Shown here: piece by piece, positions 29,421 to 55,972 of the stretch
Layout of the letters: every line of letters starts with the position of its first letter
Numbering within the stretch: position 1 is the stretch's first letter
Assembly: GCA_049303335.1 (NCBI GenBank)
Contig: JBAQNA010000022.1
Location: 1,135 to 65,134, forward strand
Length of the DNA stretch: 64,000 bases
Direction of reading: 5' to 3'
Source: Candidatus Aenigmatarchaeota archaeon
GTDB lineage: Archaea > Aenigmatarchaeota > Aenigmatarchaeia > Aenigmatarchaeales > DAIDAN01
Position numbers and translations under genes: made by a program
The notes under the pieces: model-generated
Databases searched by the model: none
What the model was told of the DNA's origin: nothing
Seen by the model: the letters and a program-made list of their open reading frames with translations, nothing else

Positions 29421-30548
29421 TTATGATGGTAGTCTTAGGTTAAAAAATCTATAGACCTTAAAAGTTAAGAAAACTATTACAAATCTTGTTATTAATTCGG
29501 CAATTTCAAATATCGGGTCTTCTAAAGGGGAGAAATATAAACTTAATAAAAATACAGGCATATAGCTTATGAAATGCGTTGCAGATAATCTTATAAAATC
29601 ATTTTTGATTCGTATTTTCAATAAATCAATAATTGCTTTTCCTAACAAAAACATAATTACTCCATTAAATAAAATACCGAATAACCAAGTATCTATGACT
29701 TCAAACTCTCCGGCAACTATTGTAACACTAATGGCATAAAATATACCCCAGAAAAACCCGAATTTTATATATTTAAGATAATTTTTAAACCAACCACTTT
29801 CTCCAACATCTTCAAAAGATGAAATCTTTCTTTCAGATGATAAATTAGATTCTAGTATGTTAAGAATCTTATCAATCTCATTTTTTTCAAGTCTAATCCT
29901 ATTTTTCTTATTCTCAATAACTTTACATAAGTCTCCTATCTTAACAATATCGGATTGCGTTTTTTCAATTTGTAAATTTGCATCAGGATTTGTAAAAACC
30001 ACAATTGTGTTAATCCAAGGCTTGAATTTTTCAGAAAATATATTTTTCTCGGAAATAAACTCTTTTAATCTTACGGCATTTCTATCTGCTTGTTTTATTG
30101 GATTTTTCAAATCTGATACGTAATACCCGCCTTTAAGATTCATCTTTTCTTGCGTCCATTTGCCATTTTCATATTTTATGTTTCCTTTATGATTCTTTGT
30201 CTCGATTACAAAAATACCATTTTTACCTATAACTATATGGTCTATATTTCCTTCTGTATTTGGTAATCTGACATCATTTAATACGAAGAAATCTTTATCC
30301 AGTTTCTTTAATTCATCTATAACAGCTTCCTCTCCTTTTGCGCCCAAATTCCATGTGATATATTTGCTAAAATAAACTAACGATATGAAGAAAAATATTA
30401 AGCCTGAAAATAATCCATATAATGCAATAGGATAGTCGGAAATTAACCCAAAAAATGCAGTCAATATCGCAAATAAAAACAAGAATAAACCACGGTTTCT
30501 ATTTAGATTGGAAAATGTTCTTGAGAATAATTCATGATTGTTTGACAT
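29421..30548 (-). CDS. membrane-anchored NERD-domain (nuclease-related) protein
   Basis: NERD signature GEEAVIDELKKL...DFFVLNDVRLP...GNIDHIVIGKNGIFVIETKNHKG; TM helices at the N- and C-terminal ends; low-GC gene. Confidence 0.65.
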   Translation of the reverse strand: MSNNHELFSRTFSNLNRNRGLFLFLFAILTAFFGLISDYPIALYGLFSGLIFFFISLVYFSKYITWNLGAKGEEAVIDELKKLDKDFFVLNDVRLPNTEGNIDHIVIGKNGIFVIETKNHKGNIKYENGKWTQEKMNLKGGYYVSDLKNPIKQADRNAVRLKEFISEKNIFSEKFKPWINTIVVFTNPDANLQIEKTQSDIVKIGDLCKVIENKKNRIRLEKNEIDKILNILESNLSSERKISSFEDVGESGWFKNYLKYIKFGFFWGIFYAISVTIVAGEFEVIDTWLFGILFNGVIMFLLGKAIIDLLKIRIKNDFIRLSATHFISYMPVFLLSLYFSPLEDPIFEIAELITRFVIVFLTFKVYRFFNLRLPS

Positions 30549-32414: not shown

Positions 32415-32858
32415 TTGCATATGAGAATTTTTATAAGTTTTTCTAAAGAAGGTATAAAATATGCAGAGAAAGTAAATACTTTTTTCGAAGTAAACGGATG
32501 TAGTCCGTTTCTAGCAACAAAAAATATCGCTCCTGGAGAATTTGGGTGGATAAGAATTGGAAAAGAAATAAATAGTTCAGATTTAATTATATTTATAATC
32601 ACAGAAAGTAGTCAAAGTTCCACAAGCCAAATGTCTGAAATTTCGTTGTCTATGAATTTAGGAAAGCATATTATATCTTGTGTTAAAGATGGAATTGAGT
32701 TATCTGAACTAATTATTCTAGAAGCGCGTAATATTCTCAAGTTTGAAGATTCAAATCTAGAGTCAATATGTCATAAGATCTTATCTAATATAAACAATGG
32801 AAGATATTCTAAAGAAATAAAACCATCTTCTTCCTTACCAGAAGGTAAAGAGGTGTGA
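32415..32858 (+). CDS. TIR-domain protein (ThsB-like, stand-alone)
   Basis: RIFISFSKEG ... LIIFIITESSQSSTSQMSEISLS follows the TIR pattern (a beta-A IFISYS-like motif and a beta-C/alpha-C Ser/Glu region). 147 aa; low-GC gene. Confidence 0.6.
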   Translation: MHMRIFISFSKEGIKYAEKVNTFFEVNGCSPFLATKNIAPGEFGWIRIGKEINSSDLIIFIITESSQSSTSQMSEISLSMNLGKHIISCVKDGIELSELIILEARNILKFEDSNLESICHKILSNINNGRYSKEIKPSSSLPEGKEV

Positions 32859-33625
32859 ATATGATAGATGAAAATGAAATAAGAGAGTTTTCAGAAGCAA
32901 TTATTGAGACCTACAAGAATTTATCAATATTAAAAGAAATCAGTCAGATTATTGAATATTCTGACGGAATTAAATGTGATTTCATTCAGATAGGGGAAAG
33001 AGTATTGTTGCCTAAAGAATTCTTTAAGAAGGGCAATAATATTGATAATAGATTTTTAGGTGGTGATTTTGCTAGGTCTGTTATATGGGGTGAGGAAAAT
33101 TTCATAATTAATCAATTGACAGAGTTAGCAGAAAAAGGCAAAATACTCTCAGTTCAGATAAAAGATTTCTCTTATCCTACTATTGTTCAATATATCTTGC
33201 GTGTTGATAATCCTACTGATATATTCATACCTATAGACCTTGAACCCTATTATATGAAAGTTCATGATTGGATAAAAGAAGGAAATGCTGGATATGAAGG
33301 AAGTCAATTATATATATTTGCTGGAGAAAAAAAAATAAGAGTACATTGGTCAACAAAATATACACCTTTTGACAGTATTATCGTACTAGATAGAGATGGT
33401 GTTAAAATAGTACAAAAAAGGTTTGAAGATATAAAAATACCAAAAGAGTTTATAACTCCAATATATAGTTATAAAAAGAGTGAACCTTTTAGAATTGATT
33501 TTGCAGAATCTGATAAACCGGATCATTTTGACTGTTATATTAGAAGTGTATTCGCTATATATGAAATAGAAAAAGAATCTATTTATGTAATAAAGTTGCC
33601 TAAGGATGAAAAATCTAAAAAGTAA
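32855..33625 (+). CDS. hypothetical protein translationally coupled to the TIR gene (candidate effector/sensor)
   Basis: ATGA start/stop overlap with the TIR gene; same low-GC composition; 256 aa, no motif recognised. Confidence 0.45.
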   Translation: MNMIDENEIREFSEAIIETYKNLSILKEISQIIEYSDGIKCDFIQIGERVLLPKEFFKKGNNIDNRFLGGDFARSVIWGEENFIINQLTELAEKGKILSVQIKDFSYPTIVQYILRVDNPTDIFIPIDLEPYYMKVHDWIKEGNAGYEGSQLYIFAGEKKIRVHWSTKYTPFDSIIVLDRDGVKIVQKRFEDIKIPKEFITPIYSYKKSEPFRIDFAESDKPDHFDCYIRSVFAIYEIEKESIYVIKLPKDEKSKK

Positions 33626-34603: not shown

Positions 34604-35425
34604 ATGGTTATGGAATACATTTCGCAGGCTTGGGACGCGTACAAAAGAAACTTCTGGCAGATAATCGGCGGACTGCTTCTTGTCATGCTCATAACTTTCG
34701 GAATAATCATAATCGGCGCGCTGCCGCTTCTTGCAAGCTTCATACAATATTACGGCGGAGTTTCTTCCCCGACAACCGCGGCATTTGCAAACTTTATTTC
34801 GGACAGCGCCGCGCAGATAGCGATATTCATTGCAGGCATACTGGCGGCTTTCATGGCTGCGGTTGCGCTTAACGCGGGATATGTAAAAATGCTTGCGGAT
34901 TCGCTGAAAGGCAAGGCCGAGATAAGCACGATATTCGAGACTGCGAAAGAGAAGTTCTGGACAATACTCGGGGCGAACATTCTCACATTGCTTATAGTTT
35001 CTGCGCTGGCGCTCGTCCTGCTGGTTCCGCCTTTCCTGATTATGGCATCGTCTTCAATCGAAACGTCCGATGTCTCGGGGATTTTCGCGGTTTTGGGCGC
35101 GCTTCTATGGTTTTTTGCGGGCTTGATAATTTTTATACTCGCGGTGCTGCCGTTTACCCTGGTAGAACAGGCGGTTGTGATAGGAAATCACGGCGTTGTC
35201 GATTCCGTGAAGAAAAGCTTTTCCGTCGTGAAAGGCAACTATCTGCAATTCCTTGCGTTGGTTGTCATTTTGGGCGTAGTAAGCGGCGTTGTCTCGCTGG
35301 TTCCGCTGATGGGCGACTTGATAAACCTCTTTGTGGTAACGCCCATTATGCTGCTGTCTTACACGATTTTCTATCTGGCGAAAACGGGAAAAACCGGAGC
35401 AAGAAAACCGAAACGGAAGCGATAA
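34604..35425 (+). CDS. hypothetical multi-pass membrane protein, tandem paralog 1
   Basis: N-terminus YISQAWDAYKRNFWQIIGGLL; paralogous to the next gene along its whole length. Confidence 0.5.
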   Translation: MVMEYISQAWDAYKRNFWQIIGGLLLVMLITFGIIIIGALPLLASFIQYYGGVSSPTTAAFANFISDSAAQIAIFIAGILAAFMAAVALNAGYVKMLADSLKGKAEISTIFETAKEKFWTILGANILTLLIVSALALVLLVPPFLIMASSSIETSDVSGIFAVLGALLWFFAGLIIFILAVLPFTLVEQAVVIGNHGVVDSVKKSFSVVKGNYLQFLALVVILGVVSGVVSLVPLMGDLINLFVVTPIMLLSYTIFYLAKTGKTGARKPKRKR

Positions 35426-35426
35426 T

Positions 35427-36308
35427 ATGGTAACAAGATACTTGTCGGAATCGTGGGACGCGTACAAAAGAAACTTCTGGCAGATAGTCGGTGGACTGCT
35501 TATTATTACATTGGTGATGTCCGGGATAATCATAGTCAGCGCGCTGCCCATCGTTGCAAAGCTCATAGGATATTTATCAGCGTCTTCCAACGTGCAGTCG
35601 GCATTGTTTCAGTTTCTCATGGACGGCGGCGTGCAGTTTTCCGCTGCCTTGCTTGTCGCAGGCGTAATAGTCGCATTGATAATAAGCACCGCGCTTGAAG
35701 CCGGATTTGTAAGAATGCTTGCGGACGCGCTGAAGGGAAAAGCCGAGATAGGCGTCATGATTTCCACGGCAAGGGAAAAATTCTGGACGATAATCGGCGC
35801 TAACGTTCTTGCCGGCGTGGCAAGGTTTGCGCTTTTCCTTGTTTTTATATTTCCGCCGTTTATGGCGATAATGTATGAGTCTGTTTATAATCTCAGCAAT
35901 TATCTTTATGCTCCTGATATCGGCACGATGCTCTGGTTTTACGGAGGCTTGGTAATCTATATGCTTCTTGTTTTGCCTTTTACCCTCGTGAATCAGGCGG
36001 TTGTTGTAGGAAATCATAATGCCGTTGATTCCGTAAAGAAAAGCTTTTCCGTCGTGAAAGCGAATTACCTGCAGTTCCTCGGGCTGACCGTTCTCGTGTC
36101 CCTGATAGCTATGTTGGTTGCGATTGTTCCCGTATTGGGCTCGCTCGCAAACTTCTTTGTGGTAACGCCTGTTGCGGCGCTCGCCTACACCGCGTTCTAT
36201 CTTGCAAAGGCGAGGGAATCCGGAAGAGCTGCAATCGGAAAAAGAGGAACCGCAAAAAGAAATTCTGTAAGGGGAAGAAAGAGAACCGGCAGAGCGAAAA
36301 GGAAATGA
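35427..36308 (+). CDS. hypothetical multi-pass membrane protein, tandem paralog 2 (Arg/Lys-rich tail)
   Basis: N-terminus YLSESWDAYKRNFWQIVGGLL; shares the blocks MLADxLKGKAEI and VVIGNHxxVDSVKKSFSVVKxNYLQF with paralog 1. Confidence 0.5.
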   Translation: MVTRYLSESWDAYKRNFWQIVGGLLIITLVMSGIIIVSALPIVAKLIGYLSASSNVQSALFQFLMDGGVQFSAALLVAGVIVALIISTALEAGFVRMLADALKGKAEIGVMISTAREKFWTIIGANVLAGVARFALFLVFIFPPFMAIMYESVYNLSNYLYAPDIGTMLWFYGGLVIYMLLVLPFTLVNQAVVVGNHNAVDSVKKSFSVVKANYLQFLGLTVLVSLIAMLVAIVPVLGSLANFFVVTPVAALAYTAFYLAKARESGRAAIGKRGTAKRNSVRGRKRTGRAKRK

Positions 36309-36372: not shown

Positions 36373-37161
36373 TCAGTTTTCTTTATCGTTTTCATTTTCC
36401 TTGCTTGCTTCAGCCGGGCTTTCCTTGTTTTCGTTTTTGTTCTCCGCAGGTTTTTCCCCGCTTTTCAGCTCCACCATTATCTCCTGGAAAAGCTCGCCCT
36501 GCTCGTAGCCTATCTTTCCTTCCTGCGCGAGGTGGAGCATAGGCATCAGCGTCTTCACGATTTTCTCGCGCTTCCAGTCCGCGACAAGCTTTGAGAATTC
36601 CACCTTGCCGTTTTCCAGCTCCGAAAGGATTCCCTTTATCTGCGCGAGCAGCTTGTCAATCCTTTCGTTGATGTCATCGGGCTCGATTGCGAGCACTTGG
36701 CCGACTATCGCCTTTTGCCTGTCCTTTCTCGCTGTCCTGCGCTCCTGCACATCGAAAGCCTTTCTCAAAGCGCCGATCAGTTCCGTGAGGCTGACGTTTT
36801 TCAGCGGCACCCTTTTTATCGGCGGGTCAAGCGGCGGAACCCCGGCGAGCTGGCGGAGCAAGTCCGCTTCTTTCTGGTTCTTGTCCGGCGACTCGGGTAT
36901 CAGTATTTTCAGCTCCTTCTCCGCGAGAATGTCCGACTTCATCCGAAGCAGGATTGCAGCTATCAGTATGAACCGCGCGGGCACGCGCAGGTCGTTTTCC
37001 ATCTTTTGGATGTGCTCGATATAGAAAGAGAAGGCGTCCGCGAGCTTCACGATGTCAATCGACCACGGCTCCATTCCCTCCTCTGCCACGATTTTGACAA
37101 TCACGTCCTCCCAGCTCGGCTCGACAACCATCAGCCTTATCATCTGCTCGTTGGATAACAT
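36373..37161 (-). CDS. scpA: segregation and condensation protein A (kleisin ScpA)
   Basis: N-terminal ScpA motif (EGMEPWSIDIVKLADAF, RFILIAAILLRMKS), a winged-helix C-terminus and an acidic tail. Confidence 0.7.
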   Translation of the reverse strand: MLSNEQMIRLMVVEPSWEDVIVKIVAEEGMEPWSIDIVKLADAFSFYIEHIQKMENDLRVPARFILIAAILLRMKSDILAEKELKILIPESPDKNQKEADLLRQLAGVPPLDPPIKRVPLKNVSLTELIGALRKAFDVQERRTARKDRQKAIVGQVLAIEPDDINERIDKLLAQIKGILSELENGKVEFSKLVADWKREKIVKTLMPMLHLAQEGKIGYEQGELFQEIMVELKSGEKPAENKNENKESPAEASKENENDKEN

Positions 37162-37233
37162 AACATCTTTTCGGGTTAAGAAGTTAAAAAGGTTTCAAGA
37201 AAACATTTTAATAAGCGTTGTCATAATTATGCT

Positions 37234-37554
37234 ATGAATCTTGACGAATTGAAAATCAGGCTGAAAGAGTATAAGCCAGAAGACATTATTTTTTCGCATC
37301 ATGCTGAAATCAGGCTGCTTCAAAGAAACATTCCGAGAAAGATTATGGAAGACAGCATAACAAATCCAGTAAACCTGATAGATTTTATAGAGGAAGAACC
37401 AGAAAGGCAGAAATACAGGCTTATATTTGAATTAAGCCATAACAGGAATCTCATAGTTGTTGCCGCGCTCGGCGCAAGAATAAGCGTCATAACCGCGCTA
37501 ATCAGGTATAGAAAATGGATGAGACCTATAAATTTAAAGGATAGAAAACAATAA
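37234..37554 (+). CDS. DUF4258-like small protein (putative toxin of a TA-like pair)
   Basis: 106 aa; pattern IIFSHHAEIRLLQRNI...; adjacent to a DUF2283-like gene. Confidence 0.4.
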   Translation: MNLDELKIRLKEYKPEDIIFSHHAEIRLLQRNIPRKIMEDSITNPVNLIDFIEEEPERQKYRLIFELSHNRNLIVVAALGARISVITALIRYRKWMRPINLKDRKQ

Positions 37555-37558
37555 GTTA

Positions 37559-37891
37559 ATGGTTAAAAATATGATAAAAGAAACTTATTTTGACTATGAC
37601 AGGGAGAACGATTCTTTGTTCATTTACAAGAAAGAGACTGTAAAGGGCAGCATTGATGTCGGGAATTATGTGGTGGACTTCACGCACGAGGGCAATGTCG
37701 CCGGAATAGAGATAATGAACGCCAGCGAGGTTATGAGAAACCTGAAAGTGGAAAATATCGAAAAGTTTCTGGAGAACATAAAACAGATCACAATCAAGTC
37801 GGTGCAGAAGCGCGATTCCGTTGTTATCTATTTTGCCATTTCTTCCGACACGCAGATAAGTTCGTCAATAGCGATTCCCGTTTGCAGATGA
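37559..37891 (+). CDS. DUF2283-like small protein (putative antitoxin partner)
   Basis: YFDYDRENDSLFIYKKE...GIEIMNAS resembles DUF2283; 4-nt spacing from the upstream gene. Confidence 0.4.
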   Translation: MVKNMIKETYFDYDRENDSLFIYKKETVKGSIDVGNYVVDFTHEGNVAGIEIMNASEVMRNLKVENIEKFLENIKQITIKSVQKRDSVVIYFAISSDTQISSSIAIPVCR

Positions 37892-37912
37892 AATTGAAAT
37901 ATTATTAAATTT

Positions 37913-38401
37913 ATGAAACTTTCCATCGAGCTTGTGCCGTCAACATCTTGGTATAACAATCTTCGGAAAGCCCTCCCGAAAGAGGAGTGGGACAGAATCA
38001 GGAAGAAGTGTTATGCCAACGCAGGCTTCAGGTGTGAGATTTGCGGAGCGAAAGGAATGTTGAACTGCCACGAAATATGGAAGTATGACGATGCGAATAA
38101 TATTCAGAAATTAGAAGGCTTTATCGCGCTCTGCGAATTATGTCACCATATCAAGCATATCGGGCTTTCCAATATTCTTGCTTCCGAGGGAAAGTTGGAC
38201 ATGAAAAGGGTTATCGCGCATTTCATGAAAGTGAACGGCTGCGACAGAGGGGCTTTTGAAGCGCACGAGAAAGAGGCGTTCGGCGAATGGGAAAAGCGTT
38301 CAGCGCACGACTGGAAAGTCGTGCTGGGAGAATATGAAGGAATGATAAGCGGGAAAGAAAATGAAAAAGAAAACAAAGATTCGCTGAAGAGATTTTTGTG
38401 A
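37913..38401 (+). CDS. HNH-like zinc-finger protein
   Basis: CEICGAKGMLNCHEIW...LCELCHHIKH is a CxxC...H...CxxCH arrangement like the HNH/His-Me finger. Confidence 0.4.
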   Translation: MKLSIELVPSTSWYNNLRKALPKEEWDRIRKKCYANAGFRCEICGAKGMLNCHEIWKYDDANNIQKLEGFIALCELCHHIKHIGLSNILASEGKLDMKRVIAHFMKVNGCDRGAFEAHEKEAFGEWEKRSAHDWKVVLGEYEGMISGKENEKENKDSLKRFL

Positions 38402-38469
38402 TTTTCATTTCACGGCTTCTTTATAGCAAAGCAGATATTTTTATAATCTAATATACAATATCATTAACT

Positions 38470-39105
38470 ATGAACAAAAAACATCTCTGGGTTTTGGCAA
38501 GGCTTATGATAATCGTCATACCTGTTATTCTTGCATTTTTCATTTTATTTAATCCCTATGAAAGGATACCTTTGTCTAGAGAAAAAATTTTAGAAAATGT
38601 TACAATGATTAAGGTATCAGAAGATGTAATATTTCAACCATCACTTAAAAATGCAATTCGTGGAGTTTTTGATGTTCCTTTTGATTTAAAATGGTATGAC
38701 ATTTGTTTTGTAAATAATGATACAAAAATAATTTTTGAGAATGGAGAGACGGATAAAAATGTAAGTGTTTCTCTTAATTTTAACTATAATCAAACAATTC
38801 TTATCATTCCTTATGGAGAAACCAAATGTATACTTTACAAGTTTAATAAAGATTTTACATATTATTGGAGATTTGAAGCTCCTATTAATTTTACTAGAAT
38901 AGCAGAAACTTCAAAAGAAGAGCGTATTTACATAAACGAAACCCATTATCTTAAACGAAAAGGGACATGGTCTTTGCATCCTGATGTTGATTCATATGCA
39001 AAACCTGAGATGAGTAGTATAATTGTTAAAAATATTTTATTTTTCTTCGCATGGTTTAGTTTTTATAATGATAGAAATTATAAATTTTGTAAGATTTGGA
39101 ATTAA
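38470..39105 (+). CDS. hypothetical membrane-anchored protein (low-GC island)
   Basis: N-terminal TM helix, Asn/Lys-rich; GC visibly lower than the neighbours. Confidence 0.35.
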   Translation: MNKKHLWVLARLMIIVIPVILAFFILFNPYERIPLSREKILENVTMIKVSEDVIFQPSLKNAIRGVFDVPFDLKWYDICFVNNDTKIIFENGETDKNVSVSLNFNYNQTILIIPYGETKCILYKFNKDFTYYWRFEAPINFTRIAETSKEERIYINETHYLKRKGTWSLHPDVDSYAKPEMSSIIVKNILFFFAWFSFYNDRNYKFCKIWN

Positions 39106-39133
39106 TAAGAAGAAATAAGAATTATATATTTGA

Positions 39134-40651
39134 TTGTTTATTATTCATATTATGAATAATAAATTTTATAAGGATTTAGATAAAGTAAACGAAGAGATGA
39201 TAAAGTTTCTTAACAGCTATTCAAAGTCAAATATCCTTCAGAAGTTTTATATTTCAAGTTTTAAATCATTTTTTTATGGAAATTTGATAAATGCTTTTTT
39301 TACCAATTTGAATGCAGAAAATATTGAGGAACTTCAATTGCCGAAAGACAAAGTTTTGGAAATTAAAAAGAAATACAGAAACGTAATAAAACAAATTAAA
39401 TTAGCAACATCTTTAAAATTAAACAAAATAGATGAAAAATATTACAATGCATTCAAAAATCAGATAAAAAAGGATTTTCCAGTATTTGTAAAATTAATTG
39501 ATAGAATCGAGAGAAGCATTAACATAAATAAAGCGAAAAATTTCTTAAAGAAAAAAGAGAAAAAGATTAAAAAATCAGGAAACTCCAATAGTGATATTAA
39601 TTCTTTTTTTATAATCAAATCTTTAGAAGCATGTATTAAAAAGGAAAGAGGTCTTCCAAACATAAATAAAATAGACAGAATAATGAGAGTTTTTATCAAA
39701 AAACTTTTGCCTAAATTCTCCAAAGCAGTAGTGAAAAATCTAAAAAAGAACAGTAAAGAAATGTTAAATTCACAGAGAACTTATCAAGGTGGATTTGAAT
39801 ATAAACTTTATGTTCGGTGGAAGGAATCAATTGATTTACTAGAATGTTTAATCAGAATCTCAATGGAATCTGGAGAAGAACATAGAAACAAAATATCTAA
39901 ATCAAATGATAAAACAAATGATTATAAAAGAGTAGCTTTAATAAAAATTCATGCGAGAGCTGTTCATATTGCAAATGAAATTCTTATATTATTAAAATCC
40001 GGATATCCTGATGGCGCCAATGCGAGATGGCGAACACTTCATGAGTTGGCAGTAATTTCTTTTTTCTTATCTGCTAATAATAGCGAAGTGTCGCAAAGGT
40101 ATCTTGAACATGAAATGATAAAGAAATTCAAAGAGGCAAAAGATTATAGAAATTATTATAAAAAATTAGGGTTTCCTTCATTTGGGAGAAAAGATTTTAA
40201 TAGATTGAAGAAAGAGAAAGAAAAATTATGTAATAAATATAACGATAAATTTCAAGGAGAATACGGATGGATTCCGAGTAAAATATTGTCAGACAGAAAT
40301 TTTAGAACATTAGAGAAGCATGTAAGATTAGATAGGCTTCATCCATTTTATAATCTTTCCAATGATGCTGTCCATGGTGGTCCTAAAGGATTCTATCGTT
40401 TAGGGCTTATGAATGCATGGCAAGATAAATTACATTTAGTTGGTGCAAGCAATTATGGTCTTGCATTACCCATTCAAAATACTGTGATTTCTCTGTTGCA
40501 CGTAACTGTCTGTTTGCTTGGTTTAGAACCAGATTTCGAGAGTCTTATGCAAATGCAAATCATATGTATTTATGTCGATGAAATATGTCCCATTGCAGCT
40601 AAAATTCAAAAACAAATAGAGAAAGAAGAAGCTTCTAAGATTTCACCATAA
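39134..40651 (+). CDS. hypothetical 505-aa protein with possible HEPN-like Rx4H motif (Abi-like candidate)
   Basis: Very Lys-rich N-terminal half. The C-terminal half has ANARWRTLHELAVISFF (R-x4-H). Low-GC gene. Confidence 0.4.
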   Translation: MFIIHIMNNKFYKDLDKVNEEMIKFLNSYSKSNILQKFYISSFKSFFYGNLINAFFTNLNAENIEELQLPKDKVLEIKKKYRNVIKQIKLATSLKLNKIDEKYYNAFKNQIKKDFPVFVKLIDRIERSININKAKNFLKKKEKKIKKSGNSNSDINSFFIIKSLEACIKKERGLPNINKIDRIMRVFIKKLLPKFSKAVVKNLKKNSKEMLNSQRTYQGGFEYKLYVRWKESIDLLECLIRISMESGEEHRNKISKSNDKTNDYKRVALIKIHARAVHIANEILILLKSGYPDGANARWRTLHELAVISFFLSANNSEVSQRYLEHEMIKKFKEAKDYRNYYKKLGFPSFGRKDFNRLKKEKEKLCNKYNDKFQGEYGWIPSKILSDRNFRTLEKHVRLDRLHPFYNLSNDAVHGGPKGFYRLGLMNAWQDKLHLVGASNYGLALPIQNTVISLLHVTVCLLGLEPDFESLMQMQIICIYVDEICPIAAKIQKQIEKEEASKISP

Positions 40652-40700
40652 AAAATAAATTAAAAGATTTTATTGATACCTTTTCATAGAAATTCTTTTC

Positions 40701-43184
40701 CTATCCCGGCATCTTTATCCCGACCAGCTTGCTCTCGCCGTTTTCCATTGAGACGCCGTAGACGCAGTCCGCCTGCTGGATTGTCAGGTCGTTGTGGCTT
40801 ATCATTATGAACTGCGCGCCTTCCGCGTATTTTTTCACAAGCTCCACGATTTTCCGCGAGTTGGGCTTGTCAAGCGCTGCGTCAACCTCGTCAAGAATGT
40901 AGAAAGGCGCTGGCCTGAAGCGCTGCACAGCGAAAAGGAACGCGAGCGCCACGAGCGTTTTTTCGCCGCCTGACATTGAGTCGATGTTCAGCAGCCTTTT
41001 TCCCGCGGGCGAAGCTTCTATCACAAGCCCGGAATCGAGGCTGTCCTCCTCGAGATGCAGGTCTGCCTCCCCGCCCGTCAAATCGTGGAACACGGTCTTG
41101 AATTGTTCCGAGACCGCGGCAAGAGTTTTCGAGAAAGTTTCCTTGCGCTTGCTTTCTATTTCAATCATTATGTAAAGAATCTTGTCCCTTTCCGCGGAAA
41201 GCTTGTCCACCCTTTCCTTCAGTTCGTTGTAGACCGCGCTCTGCTGCGCGAACTCCTCCACGGCCTTCATGTTTATGGGTCCCAACCTTTGTATCGCTGT
41301 AAACGTCTCCCGCAGCTTCGCCTCAAGAATCTCAATCTTTTCCTCCAGGATATTTTCTTTCTTGTAATTGTTGAACTCGAGCTTCAAATTGTCAAGCTCC
41401 GCCTCCAGCCTTGCCTTCTGGATTTTCAGCCTGTTGATGTCTGACTGTATGATGAGCCGCTTTTCATAAACCGCCTTCCTTTTTTCCCTTGTGCTTTGCA
41501 TTTCCTTTGAAAGCGATTCGCGCCGCTTCTCAATGTCCGAGAATTCCGTGCTTCCTTTTTCCTCCTCGTTTTGCAGGAGGCGAAGCTGTTTTTCCAATCC
41601 TGCAAGTCCTTCATCAATTTTTGCAGTCTCGTCTTCCAATACTTCTTTCTGCGTCTGGTATTTTTTCATCTCCCCTGCCTCGAAAAACGATTTCCTGTCC
41701 TTGTGATAGAAGCCGCCTATCATCGCGCCGCTTTTTTCCACGAGGTCGCCGTCAAGCGTCACATACCTTTTTCCGAAGCCCAGCTGCTTGGCGGTCTCAA
41801 TCCTGTCAACGATTACGGTGTCCCCGAAAATGAAAGAGAATGTGTTGGAATATTTTTGGTCAAAATCAACCAGATTAATTGCCAAGTCAATGACGCCGTC
41901 GCCTTTCGGCAATTCCCCAAATCTCGGCTTTATCTTGTCCAGCGGAAGGAAAGTCGCCCTGCCGATTTTGTTCTGCTTAAGGAATTTTATGCACTCCACA
42001 GCGATAGCGCTGTCCGCGACAACAATGTCGTGCAAATGCGCTCCTGCGGCAACTTCTATCGCAGTCTGGTATTCGGAAGAAACTTTTGAAAGGCTTGCAA
42101 TCGTTCCATAAACTCCGGTCCTTCCCATTCTCATTATCTCCTGCACGGGCCTGCTCGCTGATTGTTCCAAACTTCTTTGCTGCAGCATGTTCAGCTTCTC
42201 AATGATGTTGTTTATCCTTTCAATCTCAATCTTGTTGCTCTCGATCTTGTTTTTCTTCAGAAGTATTTCCGAGCGCAGCTTTTCCACTTCCTTTATTATC
42301 GAAATGTCTTTCGAGCGGTTGAACATCTTTTTTTCAAGCTCCCCCAATTCCTTTTCCTTTTCCGAGAGCCCGTTTTCCTCGCCCTGGAATTCCTTGTCCA
42401 ATTCGGCGGACGATGCTTCCTTTTCCTTTATTTTCCCGTCAAGAAGATTCATCGCGCTCTCGGCCTCGCTAAGCTTTTTGTGCGCCACTGACGCGCGAAA
42501 AACGTCAAGCTCCTTTGAAAGCTTTTGGTATTCTTCTGCGGCTTTGCTCTCCTGCTCAAGTTTTGATATCTGCGCTGCGCGCTCCGTCAGCACGATGGAC
42601 GACTCCTTCAGCCTGTTCTCGACCGTGAGAAGCTCGCGCTGCGCCTTCGTGCGCTTGTCGTCAAACTCCGCTATTCCGGAAATCTCGTCAATAATTTCTC
42701 GCCGCCCGAGCGGAGACATCTCTATTATTTCCGTCACGTTTCCCTGCAGGATTATGTTGTGTCCGTCCGGTTGGATGTTCGCGGCGTGCAGAACCTCGAG
42801 GATCTTTTCCCTTGTAACCGTGTGCCCGTTCAACTTGTAAATCGAGACGCCTTTCCTGTTTATTTTTCTTGAGACAACTATCTGCGCGTCCTCCATCGGG
42901 AATTTTTTGTCCGAGTTGTCAAAGAATATCGCGACCTTCGCGAACTCCGCGGCTTGCTTTCCCTTTCCGCCGTTGAAAATCACTTCAAGCATTTTGTCAG
43001 CGCGCAAACCCTTTGCGGAACTGCGTCCGAGAACGAAGCAGACCGCGTCAGCGGTGTTGCTCTTGCCGGAGCCGTTCGGCCCGCATATTGTGGAAAAATT
43101 GCTCGGGAAAGTCATCAGCGTCTTCTTCGCGAACGACTTGAATCCCTGCATCTCGATTTTGTCAATACGAACCATGATTACCAC
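40701..43184 (-). CDS. smc: chromosome segregation protein SMC (compact, 827 aa)
   Basis: Walker A GPNGSGKSN; hinge GVYGTIASL...ATFLPLDKI; signature LSGGEKTLVALAFLFAV; Walker B FYILDEVDAALD. The coiled-coil arms are shorter than in canonical 1150-aa SMC. Confidence 0.85.
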   Translation of the reverse strand: MVIMVRIDKIEMQGFKSFAKKTLMTFPSNFSTICGPNGSGKSNTADAVCFVLGRSSAKGLRADKMLEVIFNGGKGKQAAEFAKVAIFFDNSDKKFPMEDAQIVVSRKINRKGVSIYKLNGHTVTREKILEVLHAANIQPDGHNIILQGNVTEIIEMSPLGRREIIDEISGIAEFDDKRTKAQRELLTVENRLKESSIVLTERAAQISKLEQESKAAEEYQKLSKELDVFRASVAHKKLSEAESAMNLLDGKIKEKEASSAELDKEFQGEENGLSEKEKELGELEKKMFNRSKDISIIKEVEKLRSEILLKKNKIESNKIEIERINNIIEKLNMLQQRSLEQSASRPVQEIMRMGRTGVYGTIASLSKVSSEYQTAIEVAAGAHLHDIVVADSAIAVECIKFLKQNKIGRATFLPLDKIKPRFGELPKGDGVIDLAINLVDFDQKYSNTFSFIFGDTVIVDRIETAKQLGFGKRYVTLDGDLVEKSGAMIGGFYHKDRKSFFEAGEMKKYQTQKEVLEDETAKIDEGLAGLEKQLRLLQNEEEKGSTEFSDIEKRRESLSKEMQSTREKRKAVYEKRLIIQSDINRLKIQKARLEAELDNLKLEFNNYKKENILEEKIEILEAKLRETFTAIQRLGPINMKAVEEFAQQSAVYNELKERVDKLSAERDKILYIMIEIESKRKETFSKTLAAVSEQFKTVFHDLTGGEADLHLEEDSLDSGLVIEASPAGKRLLNIDSMSGGEKTLVALAFLFAVQRFRPAPFYILDEVDAALDKPNSRKIVELVKKYAEGAQFIMISHNDLTIQQADCVYGVSMENGESKLVGIKMPG

Positions 43185-51443: not shown

Positions 51444-52385
51444 TTAGATATTTGAACTATAAGATAAGGATTTTATATAATCTTCCATAAATTTCCAGTC
51501 AGGGTCTCCTTTTTTATCTATAGGTAATTCTATTTCATCAAAATCTAATCTTTGCAGTCTTACTTGTCTACCAAAATTATATTTATATTGCAGTTCTTTT
51601 AGAATTGTTGCTAAAAATAAGCAAATATACTTATTGAGAGAAAGACTTTTTGGAATTAAAGTATGAACATTATCATCACTAAAATATTCATAATTATGAT
51701 AGAATACATTAAAAAACATATCAATTGTTAATTTATCTCTGAAAATCTTTTTACTGTCTTTAAATTCATCATAAGAAATATAATCAACAACCCCGTTATT
51801 TTCAGACGTTGCAGTAATTAGTGGGATTTTACCTTCTATTCTTTCTTCTTTTACCAATCTTTCACCTTTTTTAATGTTAAATAAATCAACAATCTTAAAA
51901 TTTTTCCAAGTTTTAACATTTAATTCAATTTTCTTAGAGATAATCGGTTCTTTTTTCAATTCATTGATTTTTAATGAATATATCCAAGAAGGAATTTTTT
52001 CTTTAGATGGAATTTCTAAATCTTTTAGTGTTTTATTAGCTTGTCTTCCATAAGAATATTTCCATGCATTTTGTTTTAAACACATACAATAATACCATAA
52101 TTCGCGTTCATTTAATTTTATTTTTGGTGTTAAGTATACTATATGAAACCCGCTATAATACGGTTCTTTTTGTAAAAAACTCGCCATCACAGAACCACCA
52201 CAAGAAACCGAAATAGTATTTGCAGGATTTGGCGTAATCCCTTCAATTAATTTGACTTTGCCAACAACACCATTATTTTTTTCAGTTCGGGCTACAAATG
52301 GAATACCATTAGAATCTTCTTCCATATTGGAAAATTCTAAATTAACACCATATTTTAAATTAAAATAGTCTTTTACTTTGACCAT
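51444..52385 (-). CDS. restriction-modification specificity subunit (HsdS/BcgIB-like, two short TRDs)
   Basis: Two repeated TRD-like halves (YFNLKYGVNLEF...IPFVARTEKNNGVVGKV and WKNFKIVDLFNIKKGERL...IPLITATSENNGVVDYI). 1-nt spacing to the upstream gene. Low GC. Confidence 0.65.
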   Translation of the reverse strand: MVKVKDYFNLKYGVNLEFSNMEEDSNGIPFVARTEKNNGVVGKVKLIEGITPNPANTISVSCGGSVMASFLQKEPYYSGFHIVYLTPKIKLNERELWYYCMCLKQNAWKYSYGRQANKTLKDLEIPSKEKIPSWIYSLKINELKKEPIISKKIELNVKTWKNFKIVDLFNIKKGERLVKEERIEGKIPLITATSENNGVVDYISYDEFKDSKKIFRDKLTIDMFFNVFYHNYEYFSDDNVHTLIPKSLSLNKYICLFLATILKELQYKYNFGRQVRLQRLDFDEIELPIDKKGDPDWKFMEDYIKSLSYSSNI

Positions 52386-54404
52386 TTAATCACCCGTATT
52401 TAAAAATTTAAAAGCAACAAAATCTTTTAATGTTTTCTCAAAATCTTTTTCATTTAATTTAGAATAATCTGTTTCCATATATGCTTCAACACACCATTCA
52501 TCATTGGCGGTTACATATTTCTTAACACTAAACCCTTCAATTTCTTCTTTATTTCTATAATTTTCTAACCAATATTTTTTTATTTCATTCCATTTATTTT
52601 TATAATCATCTCTTCCAGATTTTCTTTTTATAAATCCGTCATCTTTCCAATAACCAAAATAAGTCTTATAATTTGTTGGATGTTTTTCTTTTGCCTTAAA
52701 TACCATAATACAAGTATTAACCCCAACATTAGAGTTATGAAACAACTCTGTTGGCATAGAAAAAACGGCTTCCAGAGTATTTTCTCTTAACAATTTTTCT
52801 TTAAGTTCCAAACCGGTACCGCTTTGAGCTAAAGCACAGCTCATAGGAACAATAGCAATACATAAAGAACCCTTTTCAAGTAAATATAAATTATTTAATA
52901 CAAATTCTAACTCTTCTGGGTCAGTTTTAGTTGATTTGTATGGAGGATTAAGAAAGCCCGTATTAGGTTTAAATGTTTTTATTTTGTTAATTGTTTTTTC
53001 ATTGAAACATGAACCTTTAATCAAGTTACTTCTCCCATCTCCGTGAATAAACATATTAGAACATACCAAAGCAAAAATATCATGCTGAAACTCAACACCA
53101 ATTATTTGTTTATGTTTTATAATTTCTTCTTTCTTTGTATCTCCTGCGGCGTCCTCAATCATTTTTCTCATAGCACTTATCAGGAAACCCCCAGTTCCAC
53201 AGCAAGTATCTAAAACCACACTATCTTTATTTATATTGGCTATCTCCGAAAATAATTCGGTGATGTGTGGAGGAGTTAAAACAATTCCTAAACCCTTATC
53301 ATTATTAGCATATCTTAAAAATTCTATATAAAATTGTCCAAGAGTATCAAAATATTGATATGTTTTATTAAAATTATTTATCCTCAAATCTACTTCGGTT
53401 ATAATATCTCTTAATTCATTTTCTTCTTTTGAAAGTATTGTATGAGTTTTTATGAAACTGTATGTAGTTATAATATCAACTATATGTTCGTTTTGAACGT
53501 TTGTTAATTTATTTTTTATAGTATTGACAAGGCTTTCAGATAATTCTTTTGGTTTCTGAAATTTATAAGAATTACAAAAAGCTTTATCTTGTAATGCTAT
53601 AAGTATTCCGCTAATTAACAAACTCCTATTAGCTTCTGGAACTTTTATGGCGTGAAGTTTATCATTTAATATTTTTGAATATCTTAACAGTTCTTGAAAA
53701 TCTTGATTAAACTTCTTCTCATCTGATTTGTAGCCATTTATATAATCATACAAGGAAAAAAGTTTATCTTCTTTAAATATAGTATTTGCTTCTTTAACTC
53801 CTTTCAGTTGTAAAAAATGAGAAATTCTTATATTAGATTTTTCTTCTCCACTAATTGCTATAGACAAAACATCATACTCTTTAGAAAGAAAAGAAGAATA
53901 TAATAAAGCTCCATCAACAGCATAATCTTTATATTTATCTCCTTCTTTAGATTTATGATATTTTGTATTAGCTTTACATTCAACAACTATTATAAAATCT
54001 GGAATTTCTTTAAATTGAATTATAAATTCTGGGTAACCCTTCCCATTTCCACTTTTTGAAGCATTTTTTAATAATTTATCAATCTTTATATTTTTAGTGG
54101 CTTGTTCTTCAAATATTATGCTGTTAAACATCCCATCATTCTTAAAATGAGTTCTTACAAAGTCTTCAGTAATTCTTTCGTTTCTCATTTTTTCCCCCTC
54201 TTTAGATACTCTTCTATTGAGATTTGTATGACTTTCGACCTGTCTGTTGGGGCTGGTTTTGTTTGAGAACAATATTCGTCTAATTCTTTTAGAACTTGTT
54301 TGCTTATAGAAATAGTTGCCCTTGCCTTTACAACTTCTTTTTTCATGTAATAATTGAGAAGATTGTGACTTATAATCTTTAGTATGATTAGTATTACTTC
54401 TCAT
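52386..54404 (-). CDS. Type IIB/IIG restriction-modification enzyme A subunit (N-terminal PD-(D/E)xK nuclease plus gamma-class N6-adenine methyltransferase, BcgIA-like)
   Basis: Motif IV FLNPPYKS (NPPY) and motif I LDTCCGTGGFLISA. The N-terminus has PDFIIVVECK, a nuclease (E)xK-like pattern. Together with the 313-aa S subunit this matches BcgI A/B architecture. Confidence 0.7.
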   Translation of the reverse strand: MRSNTNHTKDYKSQSSQLLHEKRSCKGKGNYFYKQTSSKRIRRILFSNKTSPNRQVESHTNLNRRVSKEGEKMRNERITEDFVRTHFKNDGMFNSIIFEEQATKNIKIDKLLKNASKSGNGKGYPEFIIQFKEIPDFIIVVECKANTKYHKSKEGDKYKDYAVDGALLYSSFLSKEYDVLSIAISGEEKSNIRISHFLQLKGVKEANTIFKEDKLFSLYDYINGYKSDEKKFNQDFQELLRYSKILNDKLHAIKVPEANRSLLISGILIALQDKAFCNSYKFQKPKELSESLVNTIKNKLTNVQNEHIVDIITTYSFIKTHTILSKEENELRDIITEVDLRINNFNKTYQYFDTLGQFYIEFLRYANNDKGLGIVLTPPHITELFSEIANINKDSVVLDTCCGTGGFLISAMRKMIEDAAGDTKKEEIIKHKQIIGVEFQHDIFALVCSNMFIHGDGRSNLIKGSCFNEKTINKIKTFKPNTGFLNPPYKSTKTDPEELEFVLNNLYLLEKGSLCIAIVPMSCALAQSGTGLELKEKLLRENTLEAVFSMPTELFHNSNVGVNTCIMVFKAKEKHPTNYKTYFGYWKDDGFIKRKSGRDDYKNKWNEIKKYWLENYRNKEEIEGFSVKKYVTANDEWCVEAYMETDYSKLNEKDFEKTLKDFVAFKFLNTGD

Positions 54405-54494
54405 ACTAATACATATTGTATCATACTATTAATACTAATCATACTATATATTTTCGCAGAAATTCTTATCTTAAAAACTTTTCAGAAATACAAC

Positions 54495-54644
54495 TCACGC
54501 TTTTTTCTTCATCTCCTCGTCTATCTTTTTCTGGACGAAGTGGGAGAGGTTGATGTAGTGGTCTTCTATATATTTGGCTTGATGAGGGAATAATGTTATG
54601 TTCTTTTTGACCGCCTTTTCTTCCTCTTTTTTCTTCTTTGTCAT
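54495..54644 (-). CDS. small basic protein (possible RHH/regulator) adjacent to the transposase
   Basis: MTKKKKEEEKAVKKNITLFPHQAKYIEDHYINLSHFVQKKIDEEMKKKA. The upstream extension in the ORF track is a Tyr/Thr low-complexity artefact of TA-rich repeats. Confidence 0.25.
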   Translation of the reverse strand: MTKKKKEEEKAVKKNITLFPHQAKYIEDHYINLSHFVQKKIDEEMKKKA

Positions 54645-54760
54645 ATTATACGTATAATAGGTATGAGTATATATACTTGTGTATGTATACATATAATACG
54701 TATTATGTGTATAATAGAAATACAGAAACATAACAATCAAAAAACAAAAGAGGCGATTTA

Positions 54761-55972
54761 ATGCAAAACCAAAATTCAGCTAACATGACAAGAGAGCAGA
54801 AAGGATTAGAGATAGCAAAAACTTCCCAAATAACAAAGAATGAAAAGGGATATTGGAAAGTGCCAAGCCAGTCGGGGCATGGCTACTATCTTGTGAATCT
54901 TAACAAGCATGAGCCAGAATGTTCTTGCCCAGACTGCGAATTAAGAAAGCTGAAATGCAAGCACATTTTCGCGGTAGAATTTTATCTGAAAAGGGAAATT
55001 GACAGCACGGGCAACATGACAGAAACAAAGGCAGTAAAGATAACTTATTCGCAGAATTGGGAAGCATACAACAAAGCACAAACAAGCGAGTTAAGGCTCT
55101 TTGATGTTCTGCTTAAAGACTTGGTTAATGATGTGGAAGAGCCAAAACAGCACATGGGAAGAAAGAGATTAGACATTAAGGATACCATGTTTTGCGCAAT
55201 ACAAAAAGTCTATTCCCAGCTTTCAAGCAGAAGGGCATACTCGCTTTATGCAAACGCAAAAGAAAAGGAAAAGATAAAGAACGCTCCGAATTTCAACGCA
55301 ATAAACAAGTTCCTTAACCGCGAGGATATAACGCCGATACTACACAATTTGCTGACATTAACGGCTTTGCCTCTAAAAAGCGTGGAAACGACTTTTGCCC
55401 CAGACAGTTCTGGTTTCAGAACCACACAATTTAACGAATACTGCAAAGAAAAGCATGGCACGGACAAATATCATATATGGGTAAAGGCGCATATCCTTGT
55501 CGGGACTAAAACAAATATCGTGGCGAGTGCAAGAATAACCGAAGGGGAAAGTGCTGATTGTCCGCAGTTCGCACCTATGGTTAATGAAGCCCATGACAAC
55601 GGCTTTGAGATAAAAGAGATAACAGCGGACAAGGCTTATTCAAGCCGTGATAACTACTCTTTGGCTCAAAGCATAGGAGCAACCGCCTTTATCCCTTTTA
55701 AATCAAACGCTACGGGAAAATCAAGAGGCTCTATGATTTGGGGGCAGATGTATCACTACTTCATGTATAGGCATGATGAGTTTATGCAACACTACCACCA
55801 GCGAAGTAATGTAGAAAGTGCCTTCAACATGATTAAGGCGAAATTCGGCGACAAGTTAAGAAGCAAAAATTATGTGGCACAACAAAATGAACTTTTATGC
55901 AAACTGATAGCCCACAATATCGTTGTGCTGATACATGAGATACACGAACTCGGGATAAAGCCCGAGTTCTGA
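54761..55972 (+). mobile_element. IS4/IS5-like DDE transposase with N-terminal SWIM zinc finger (IS element ORF)
   Basis: SWIM CSCPDCELRKLKCKHIFAV. DDE region ...ADKAYSSRDN... and the C-terminal YHQRSNVESAFNMIKAKFG (conserved E) are typical of DDE_Tnp_1. TA-rich imperfect repeats lie upstream at 54400-54760. Confidence 0.7.

Follow-up and report, generated by a model that had tools for sequence, protein, structure and literature searches.

This locus raises the question of what the large lysine-rich gene in the lowest-GC part of an archaeal contig encodes, whether it acts alone, and how it came to lie between scpA and smc. The window, meaning the whole 64,000-nucleotide (nt) stretch analysed, spans positions 1,135 to 65,134 of contig JBAQNA010000022.1 from a Candidatus Aenigmatarchaeota archaeon. 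Positions 38400-40650 form its lowest part in guanine-cytosine (GC) content, at 19-33% versus 44.0% overall. The 1-kb bin 39001-40000 stands at 23.2% GC, the minimum among the window bins, and 300-nt windows across the island go down to 19%. The island holds two plus-strand genes, one for a protein of 211 amino acids (aa) with 26.9% GC and one for the large protein with 28.0% GC; scpA and smc stand at 53% and 50%. These counts bear out the very low-GC island with two genes described in the initial annotation, which had also suggested that the large protein could be a HEPN RNase. For the window the outcome is mostly a correction: the large gene is already known as DUF5677, and the HEPN idea falls.

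The mechanical open reading frame (ORF) of the large protein runs from 39134 to 40651 (+), starts with TTG and encodes 505 aa. The NCBI model and every homologue begin at the equivalent of the ATG at 39152, six codons later, and the true product is for this reason most likely a protein of 499 aa (39152..40651, +). The 505-aa ORF reported earlier is hence real in its frame, with a start that more likely lies downstream; residue numbers given here follow the 505-aa ORF (TTG 39134). The Pfam profile PF18928 (DUF5677) matches residues 268-423 with 95.8 bits against a cut-off of 27.1 (E 3.9e-27), and the alignment covers profile positions 3-158 of 166. A second match, to phrog_27456, extends over residues 181-493 (E 7.6e-51). 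An NCBI entry of 499 aa from a Candidatus Aenigmatarchaeota metagenome-assembled genome, named ‘DUF5677 domain-containing protein’, is 100% identical, so that the DUF5677 annotation of this gene is not new and the novelty of this copy is low. The AlphaFold2 model is all-alpha, with a mean confidence (pLDDT) of 91.5. Compared with Pfam PF18928 and phrog_27456, the protein fits: its hidden Markov model score lies well past the cut-off and the family-invariant residues are all present. Its length and helix pattern also agree with those of about 185 full-length homologues. On these matches, the large protein is identified as a full-length, long-form member of the DUF5677 family, and this identity, together with the foreign origin of the gene, is held with high confidence.

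The family is large, catalogued and without known function. An exhaustive profile search returns 3,783 cluster representatives at 50% identity with E ≤ 1e-3, including 1,743 with E ≤ 1e-30, and the literature on DUF5677 amounts to essentially nothing. Members fall into three size classes, of ~300-370 aa (core only), ~420 aa and ~500 aa (the long form); the alignment of the 300-370-aa and ~420-aa forms begins only at about residue 175. The conserved core of ~330 aa, residues ~170-505 (39641..40651, +), is common to the whole family, and 79 of 79 diverse cores match PF18928. In comparison with the short forms, among them the copies of phage SPR and of Escherichia coli prophages, the protein of the window adds an N-terminal helical region of ~170 aa. 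This lysine-rich extension (residues 7-169; 39152..39640, +) is present only in the ~500-aa form and has an isoelectric point (pI) of 9.9; lysine makes up 20% of the N-terminal 164 residues. The lysine richness noted earlier holds for the entire protein (K 14.2%, pI 9.7). The extension has no reproducible Pfam match in 22 members; a SWT1_3rd match in the N-terminus (E 0.025) is regarded as noise, as it occurs in only one of the 22, and a combination of Peptidase_C15 with DUF5677 in one long member is probably a gene-call fusion. Long-form homologues with 45-65% identity are found in Aenigmatarchaeota, Heimdallarchaeota, Methanoperedens, Bathyarchaeia and Actinomycetota, and further in Saccharibacteria, Gracilibacteria, Thermodesulfobacteriota, Aminicenantes and Dehalococcoidia. 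Because long forms this similar occur across archaea and bacteria, only horizontal transfer, repeated and across the boundary of the domains, can account for their spread.

Conservation within the family is counted in 81 diverse members from genomes (25-65% identity) and, separately, in 106 long forms. In the diverse set, W229, E282, L286, G290, W299, R300, E304, W379 and G442 are invariant, and H273 (75/81), R275 (74/81), D293 (76/81), A295 (80/81) and R298 (78/81) are nearly so; Y406 and H414 are kept in 75 and 78 of 80 members. In the long forms, R298, W299 and R300 are invariant and H414 is present in 106 of 106. Three segments on the plus strand carry many of these positions: the conserved helix HARAVHIANEI (39950..39982; H273, R275, E282), the signature motif DGANARWRTLHE (40010..40045; D293-E304) at the N-terminus of helix 292-313, and a second conserved block, YNLSNDAVHGGPKG (40349..40390; Y406, H414, G419), all three being defined by the translation and the conservation counts. 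The protein of the window has E282, G290, W299, R300, E304, W379, G442, H273, R275, R298 and H414. Since the conserved positions (W229, H273, R275, E282, W379, Y406, H414, G437, G442) reach well past a HEPN-sized unit, they suggest one larger site that would be assembled from several helices. The invariant and near-invariant residues point to a different, previously undescribed putative active or binding site.

The signature motif is also where the HEPN proposal takes its origin. In that reading the C-terminal half would be a HEPN domain with R298-x4-H303 as its catalytic pair, acting as an RNase of the abortive-infection type, and homologues would be expected to conserve both residues. The R-x4-H motif is present as described, in DGANARWRTLHE, and is helical in the AlphaFold2 model. 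R-x4-6-H occurs four times in the large protein, and composition-preserving shuffles contain at least one in 75% of cases (P = 0.75); the presence of the motif is not above chance and therefore carries no weight on its own. While R298 is kept, H303 is His in only 47 of the 81 diverse members, being Tyr in 29 and another residue in 5; in the 106 long forms it is His in 89, Tyr in 12, Arg in 4 and Cys in 1. None of the other Rx4-6H occurrences pairs two conserved residues. Searches with Pfam yield no HEPN-clan profile up to E 5 in the 79 diverse cores or in 22 full-length members, and DUF5677 is the only Pfam family matched by all members; the other recurrent match, PRANC, is weak and sub-threshold (10 of 79 cores, 3 of 22 full-length members). 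Profile searches of all PDB sequences give no match, and fold searches return generic helical bundles only. The fold match to HEPN is no better than that to designed bundles and is gone for the four-helix fragment that ends with the motif. No sequence or fold evidence links DUF5677 specifically to HEPN, and with the His of the motif failing the conservation expected of it, a HEPN RNase is very improbable. A reading of the conserved residues as a tyrosine-recombinase-like R/H/R/H/Y set is likewise rejected, as their order and spacing are wrong and no integrase folds match.

The origin of the gene becomes visible in a comparison with two close relatives, loci L115 (3384-8741) and L116 (140-8681). 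In the window, a plus-strand block of 3.5 kb, consisting of the DUF4258, DUF2283, HNH, 211-aa and DUF5677 genes, lies between scpA (36373..37161, -; SMC_ScpA E 7.2e-12) on the left and smc (40701..43184, -; SMC_N 3.9e-70 plus a hinge domain) on the right. Both relatives retain the flanks, with scpA 85-86% and smc 87-90% identical and with the AP-endonuclease and DUF7847-like membrane genes in place. The cargo of L115 between smc and scpA is a ParB-like gene and two ORFs; that of L116 is TrmB, three ORFs, an HNH gene 85% identical to that of the window, a ParE toxin and one small ORF. The DUF5677 gene and the 211-aa gene are absent from both relatives. Three genomes whose flanks are 85-90% identical hold three different gene sets, which makes the smc-scpA interval (window 36373-43184) of this Aenigmatarchaeota lineage a hotspot of variable cargo; the two low-GC genes came into it recently. 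The foreign, non-housekeeping character proposed earlier for the island genes is borne out by their lack in both relatives. As for marks of integration, flanking direct or inverted repeats amount only to short AT-rich chance matches, and no tRNA lies at the island, the only one of the window being at 16.5 kb.

The low-GC neighbour of the DUF5677 gene (38470..39105, +) encodes a 211-aa protein with one strongly hydrophobic N-terminal segment at residues 5-30, a single transmembrane segment that agrees with the membrane anchoring described earlier. It has no Pfam, PADLOC, NCBIfam or PHROG match and about 20 homologues, the named ones being from Aenigmatarchaeota. A gap of 46 nt (28 nt if counted to the TTG start) separates the two adjacent genes, which have the same orientation and the same very low GC content, an arrangement from which a two-gene system of membrane sensor or anchor and effector could be proposed. 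Against such a system, the 211-aa homologues occur in contexts unrelated to this one, no called DUF5677 gene lies near them in three contexts (four loci), and the genes upstream of DUF5677 in 83 other loci are unrelated to the 211-aa gene. In L008, the product of the gene that precedes DUF5677 is not homologous to the 211-aa protein; in L090, the 358-aa gene that follows the 211-aa homologue is not homologous to DUF5677 either. The 211-aa gene is restricted to its lineage and unrelated to DUF5677, a neighbour and not a partner; that the two proteins form one system is extremely unlikely.

The same independence is seen across the family. In 83 loci, the 148 nearest neighbours, scanned with Pfam and PADLOC, have no family in common, and because of this DUF5677 is a solitary gene or module, with no conserved partner gene over the 83 loci. 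The commonest neighbours are N6_Mtase (5), Eco57I (3), phage integrase (3), MmeI (2), CHAT (2), DUF4238 (2) and IS110 transposase (2), and the PADLOC matches among them are methyltransferases of restriction-modification (RM) systems; these counts stand without a genome-wide control, and overlapping RM families are not summed. Individual loci place DUF5677 within RM genes: in a same-strand NgoPII-Dcm-Vsr locus (L005/L006), after a same-strand Dcm-EcoRII-C-HhH-GPD locus (L008/L009), in a Vsr/Dcm/DEAD-helicase/MmeI-like island (L004), and in L084, where its start codon overlaps the stop of an MmeI-type enzyme. Integrases or a terminase are close to it in some other loci. A general linkage to Dcm/Vsr, hinted at by three of the first six contexts, is rejected, since phmmer over all loci added one locus only. 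As a separate observation, an enzyme of T:G or U:G mismatch repair stands beside or near DUF5677 in five independent loci, being Vsr in three (L005 7333-7737; L004 9578-10003; L067 2865-3398), HhH-GPD in one (L008 7332-7976) and a UDG-superfamily protein in one (L010 5094-5750, in phage SPR). This recurrent adjacency may only reflect 5-methylcytosine RM islands; it recurs with three non-homologous folds.

Mobile elements carry the family as well. In Bacillus phage SPR, spr_109 is a DUF5677 gene (product of 373 aa) situated between a UDG-superfamily gene and aimR. Family members are found in 20 IMG/VR contigs and in 13 plasmid records. Among the latter, an E. coli record of 4.9 Mb is evidently a chromosome; this record, labelled ‘plasmid unnamed1’ (NZ_CP141089.1, L011), has no entry in its gene table at the DUF5677 region. 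In E. coli, 72 of 5,426 complete genomes have DUF5677, in a lambdoid prophage integrated beside rspB; the prophage protein WP_000379313.1 has 341 aa. The copy of strain O128:H27 (NZ_CP024243.1; L094 12109-13134), of 341 aa, lies between DUF977/replication genes and hokD, which is a classic moron position. Among 67 loci, the family gene is lower in GC content than its flanks by more than 5 points in 39 and higher by more than 5 points in none.

These observations outline a possible mode of action. The DUF5677 gene is a solitary mobile accessory gene, dropped recently into the smc-scpA hotspot together with the unrelated 211-aa gene. Its product would be a self-contained conflict effector serving in defence against, or exclusion of, phages or mobile elements. 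A role of this kind is inferred because the family occurs as prophage morons and on plasmids, lies in proximity to RM genes and has crossed between domains; it is offered as a tentative proposal that may well be wrong, and of the roles it covers, defence or exclusion is favoured over counter-defence. The conserved core would form an enzyme or binding module, the residues conserved in it being predicted to belong to one active or ligand-binding site, and target or trigger would be tuned by the variable N-terminal region. A nucleic acid or nucleotide is suggested as the target by the basic pI. Catalysis, if there is any, would proceed through the E/R/E/H constellation and not through a HEPN Rx4-6H dyad, although any specific chemistry assigned to the family is improbable. 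In its fullest form, the proposal has DUF5677 as a new all-alpha enzyme fold that has no recognisable relative in the structures solved so far, and as a common effector of immunity or exclusion that is encoded by one gene and passes between archaea, bacteria and their viruses. Its catalytic centre would be formed by E282/R298-W299-R300/E304/H414, with a mechanism other than that of HEPN, and its variable N-terminal regions would be trigger or target modules; the whole of this is doubtful.

Several points weigh against this proposal. In a preprint (PMC12632615), nine candidates were tested with six phages and five are listed as cutting plaquing; an Enterococcus-derived DUF5677 ORF expressed in E. 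faecalis, of a kind found beside serine recombinases in Bacillota, does not figure in these five. Domain fusions give no functional hint, as ten members of unusual length have DUF5677 only, with one exception, and no PADLOC model matches the large protein, NCBIfam being equally without a match. Most nearest neighbours are unannotated or ordinary, the RM and mobile genes being a small minority (N6_Mtase 5 of 148, integrase 3, transposase 2), and the spatial clustering of the conserved residues in the model is assumed. An ordinary regulatory, metabolic or structural role of a gene that is just often transferred would suit the many housekeeping neighbours (transporters, DnaE, dehydrogenases) and the family's place in no defence database. 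It accords poorly with the patchy spread over both domains, the foreign GC content, the prophage-moron and plasmid sites and the lack of DUF5677 in close relatives, and is on balance unlikely.

The remaining alternatives keep the link to mobile elements or RM genes and change what the protein does there. As a counter-defence or element-benefit factor of phages and plasmids, for instance one that inhibits or modulates restriction or another kind of immunity in the host, DUF5677 would be expected in places such as those where it is found: beside the arbitrium regulator of the bona fide phage SPR, in viral contigs, on plasmids and repeatedly adjacent to RM genes; the lack of a defence phenotype in the single published test would also fit. 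Anti-defence proteins tend to be small, fast-evolving and host-specific. A core of ~330 aa with charged and aromatic residues invariant across distant hosts is atypical of them, many chromosomal copies have no recognisable element nearby, and co-orientation with RM genes, and overlap with one, fit a co-working module better than an inhibitor, so that this alternative appears quite unlikely. A further alternative is an accessory of cytosine-methylation RM modules or of base-damage repair, functioning with T:G or U:G mismatch enzymes. Vsr near DUF5677 in L004, L005/L006 and L067, the HhH-GPD glycosylase after Dcm and EcoRII-C in L008/L009 and the UDG-superfamily protein of SPR speak for it, yet Dcm or Vsr is within the fetched flanks in only 4 of ~85 loci, the window has neither beside DUF5677, and the association may only reflect co-location in RM islands. 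Such an accessory function has very little probability. Of the readings weighed, a conflict effector of the defence or exclusion type is preferred.

The other genes of the interval lie, as described earlier, upstream of the island. The HNH endonuclease gene (37913..38401, +; 162 aa, phrog_5200 E 2e-45) has an orthologue of 85% identity at the same position in L116; it is a resident of the smc-scpA interval outside the island, and therefore has an ordinary GC content of 45%. The DUF4258/DUF2283 pair (37234..37891, +; 106 and 110 aa), which resembles a toxin-antitoxin pair, has a solid match to DUF2283 (41.3 bits, E 1.8e-10); the 106-aa ORF (37234-37554) reaches 24.5 bits against DUF4258, just under the Pfam gathering score of 25. 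Homologues of the pair are in neither L115 nor L116, where the ParE toxin of L116 takes the equivalent place, and the pair is specific to the source genome within the hotspot. Like the large and 211-aa proteins, the HNH, DUF2283 and DUF4258 proteins have no match in PADLOC-DB 2.0.0 at E ≤ 1. Around the interval, the SMC of L116 (1,389 aa; L116 140-4309) contains an intein with a LAGLIDADG endonuclease domain, which the 827-aa SMC of the window does not. Tandem paralogous multi-pass membrane proteins of 273 and 293 aa are encoded at window 34604-36308; the relatives have a single copy, and the homologues in L115 and L116 match DUF7847.

Other low-GC patches of the window hold a NERD nuclease, a TIR-domain gene, type I RM M and S subunits and a DDE transposase, and low-GC islands in the genome as a rule have the look of conflict cargo taken up from elsewhere. 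At window 32415-33625 (+), a TIR_2-domain ORF (147 aa, E 1e-9) ends in a stop that overlaps the start of a 256-aa ORF without a Pfam match; the two may constitute a TIR-based defence pair. The NERD-domain nuclease (375 aa; window 29421-30548, -) is close to them. A third island, at 51444-55972 with 27-32% GC, contains a type I RM specificity subunit (313 aa), an N6-methyltransferase (672 aa) and a DDE/SWIM transposase (403 aa), with no hsdR for these RM genes among the ORFs scanned.

The interest of the locus lies in the family, with thousands of clusters, cross-domain transfer, a sharply conserved putative site and no structural or functional precedent. If DUF5677 is indeed a defence or exclusion enzyme, it would represent a new effector chemistry common to archaea and bacteria. 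The E. coli lambdoid prophages and the Bacillus SPbeta-like phages, which carry it at typical accessory positions, provide tractable hosts, and the smc-scpA hotspot offers a landmark by which accessory genes can be located in the small Aenigmatarchaeota (DPANN) genomes of this group.

In comparison with known systems, DUF5677 differs from the HEPN RNases (AbiD/F, AbiV, MNT-HEPN toxins, PrrC/RloC-like proteins, and the Cas13 and Csm6 domains) in that its His is not conserved. It has no profile similarity to any family of the HEPN superfamily, and its conserved site, to which W379 and H414 belong, extends over more than 200 residues. The Fic/Doc proteins have the motif HxFx(D/E)GNGRxxR. The DGANARWR segment of DUF5677, at the N-terminus of a helix, is superficially similar to the anion-binding loop (D/E)GNGRxxR of that motif; a Fic/Doc-like loop is rejected. 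From the exclusion and abortive-infection (Abi) genes, DUF5677 differs in being without a known phenotype and in that the one tested member showed no protection. It shares with them, and with the morons of prophages, the form of a single gene of low GC content and patchy distribution. Its placement is likewise that of a prophage moron, the E. coli copy lying between the replication module and the hokD/nin region and the SPR copy beside aimR.

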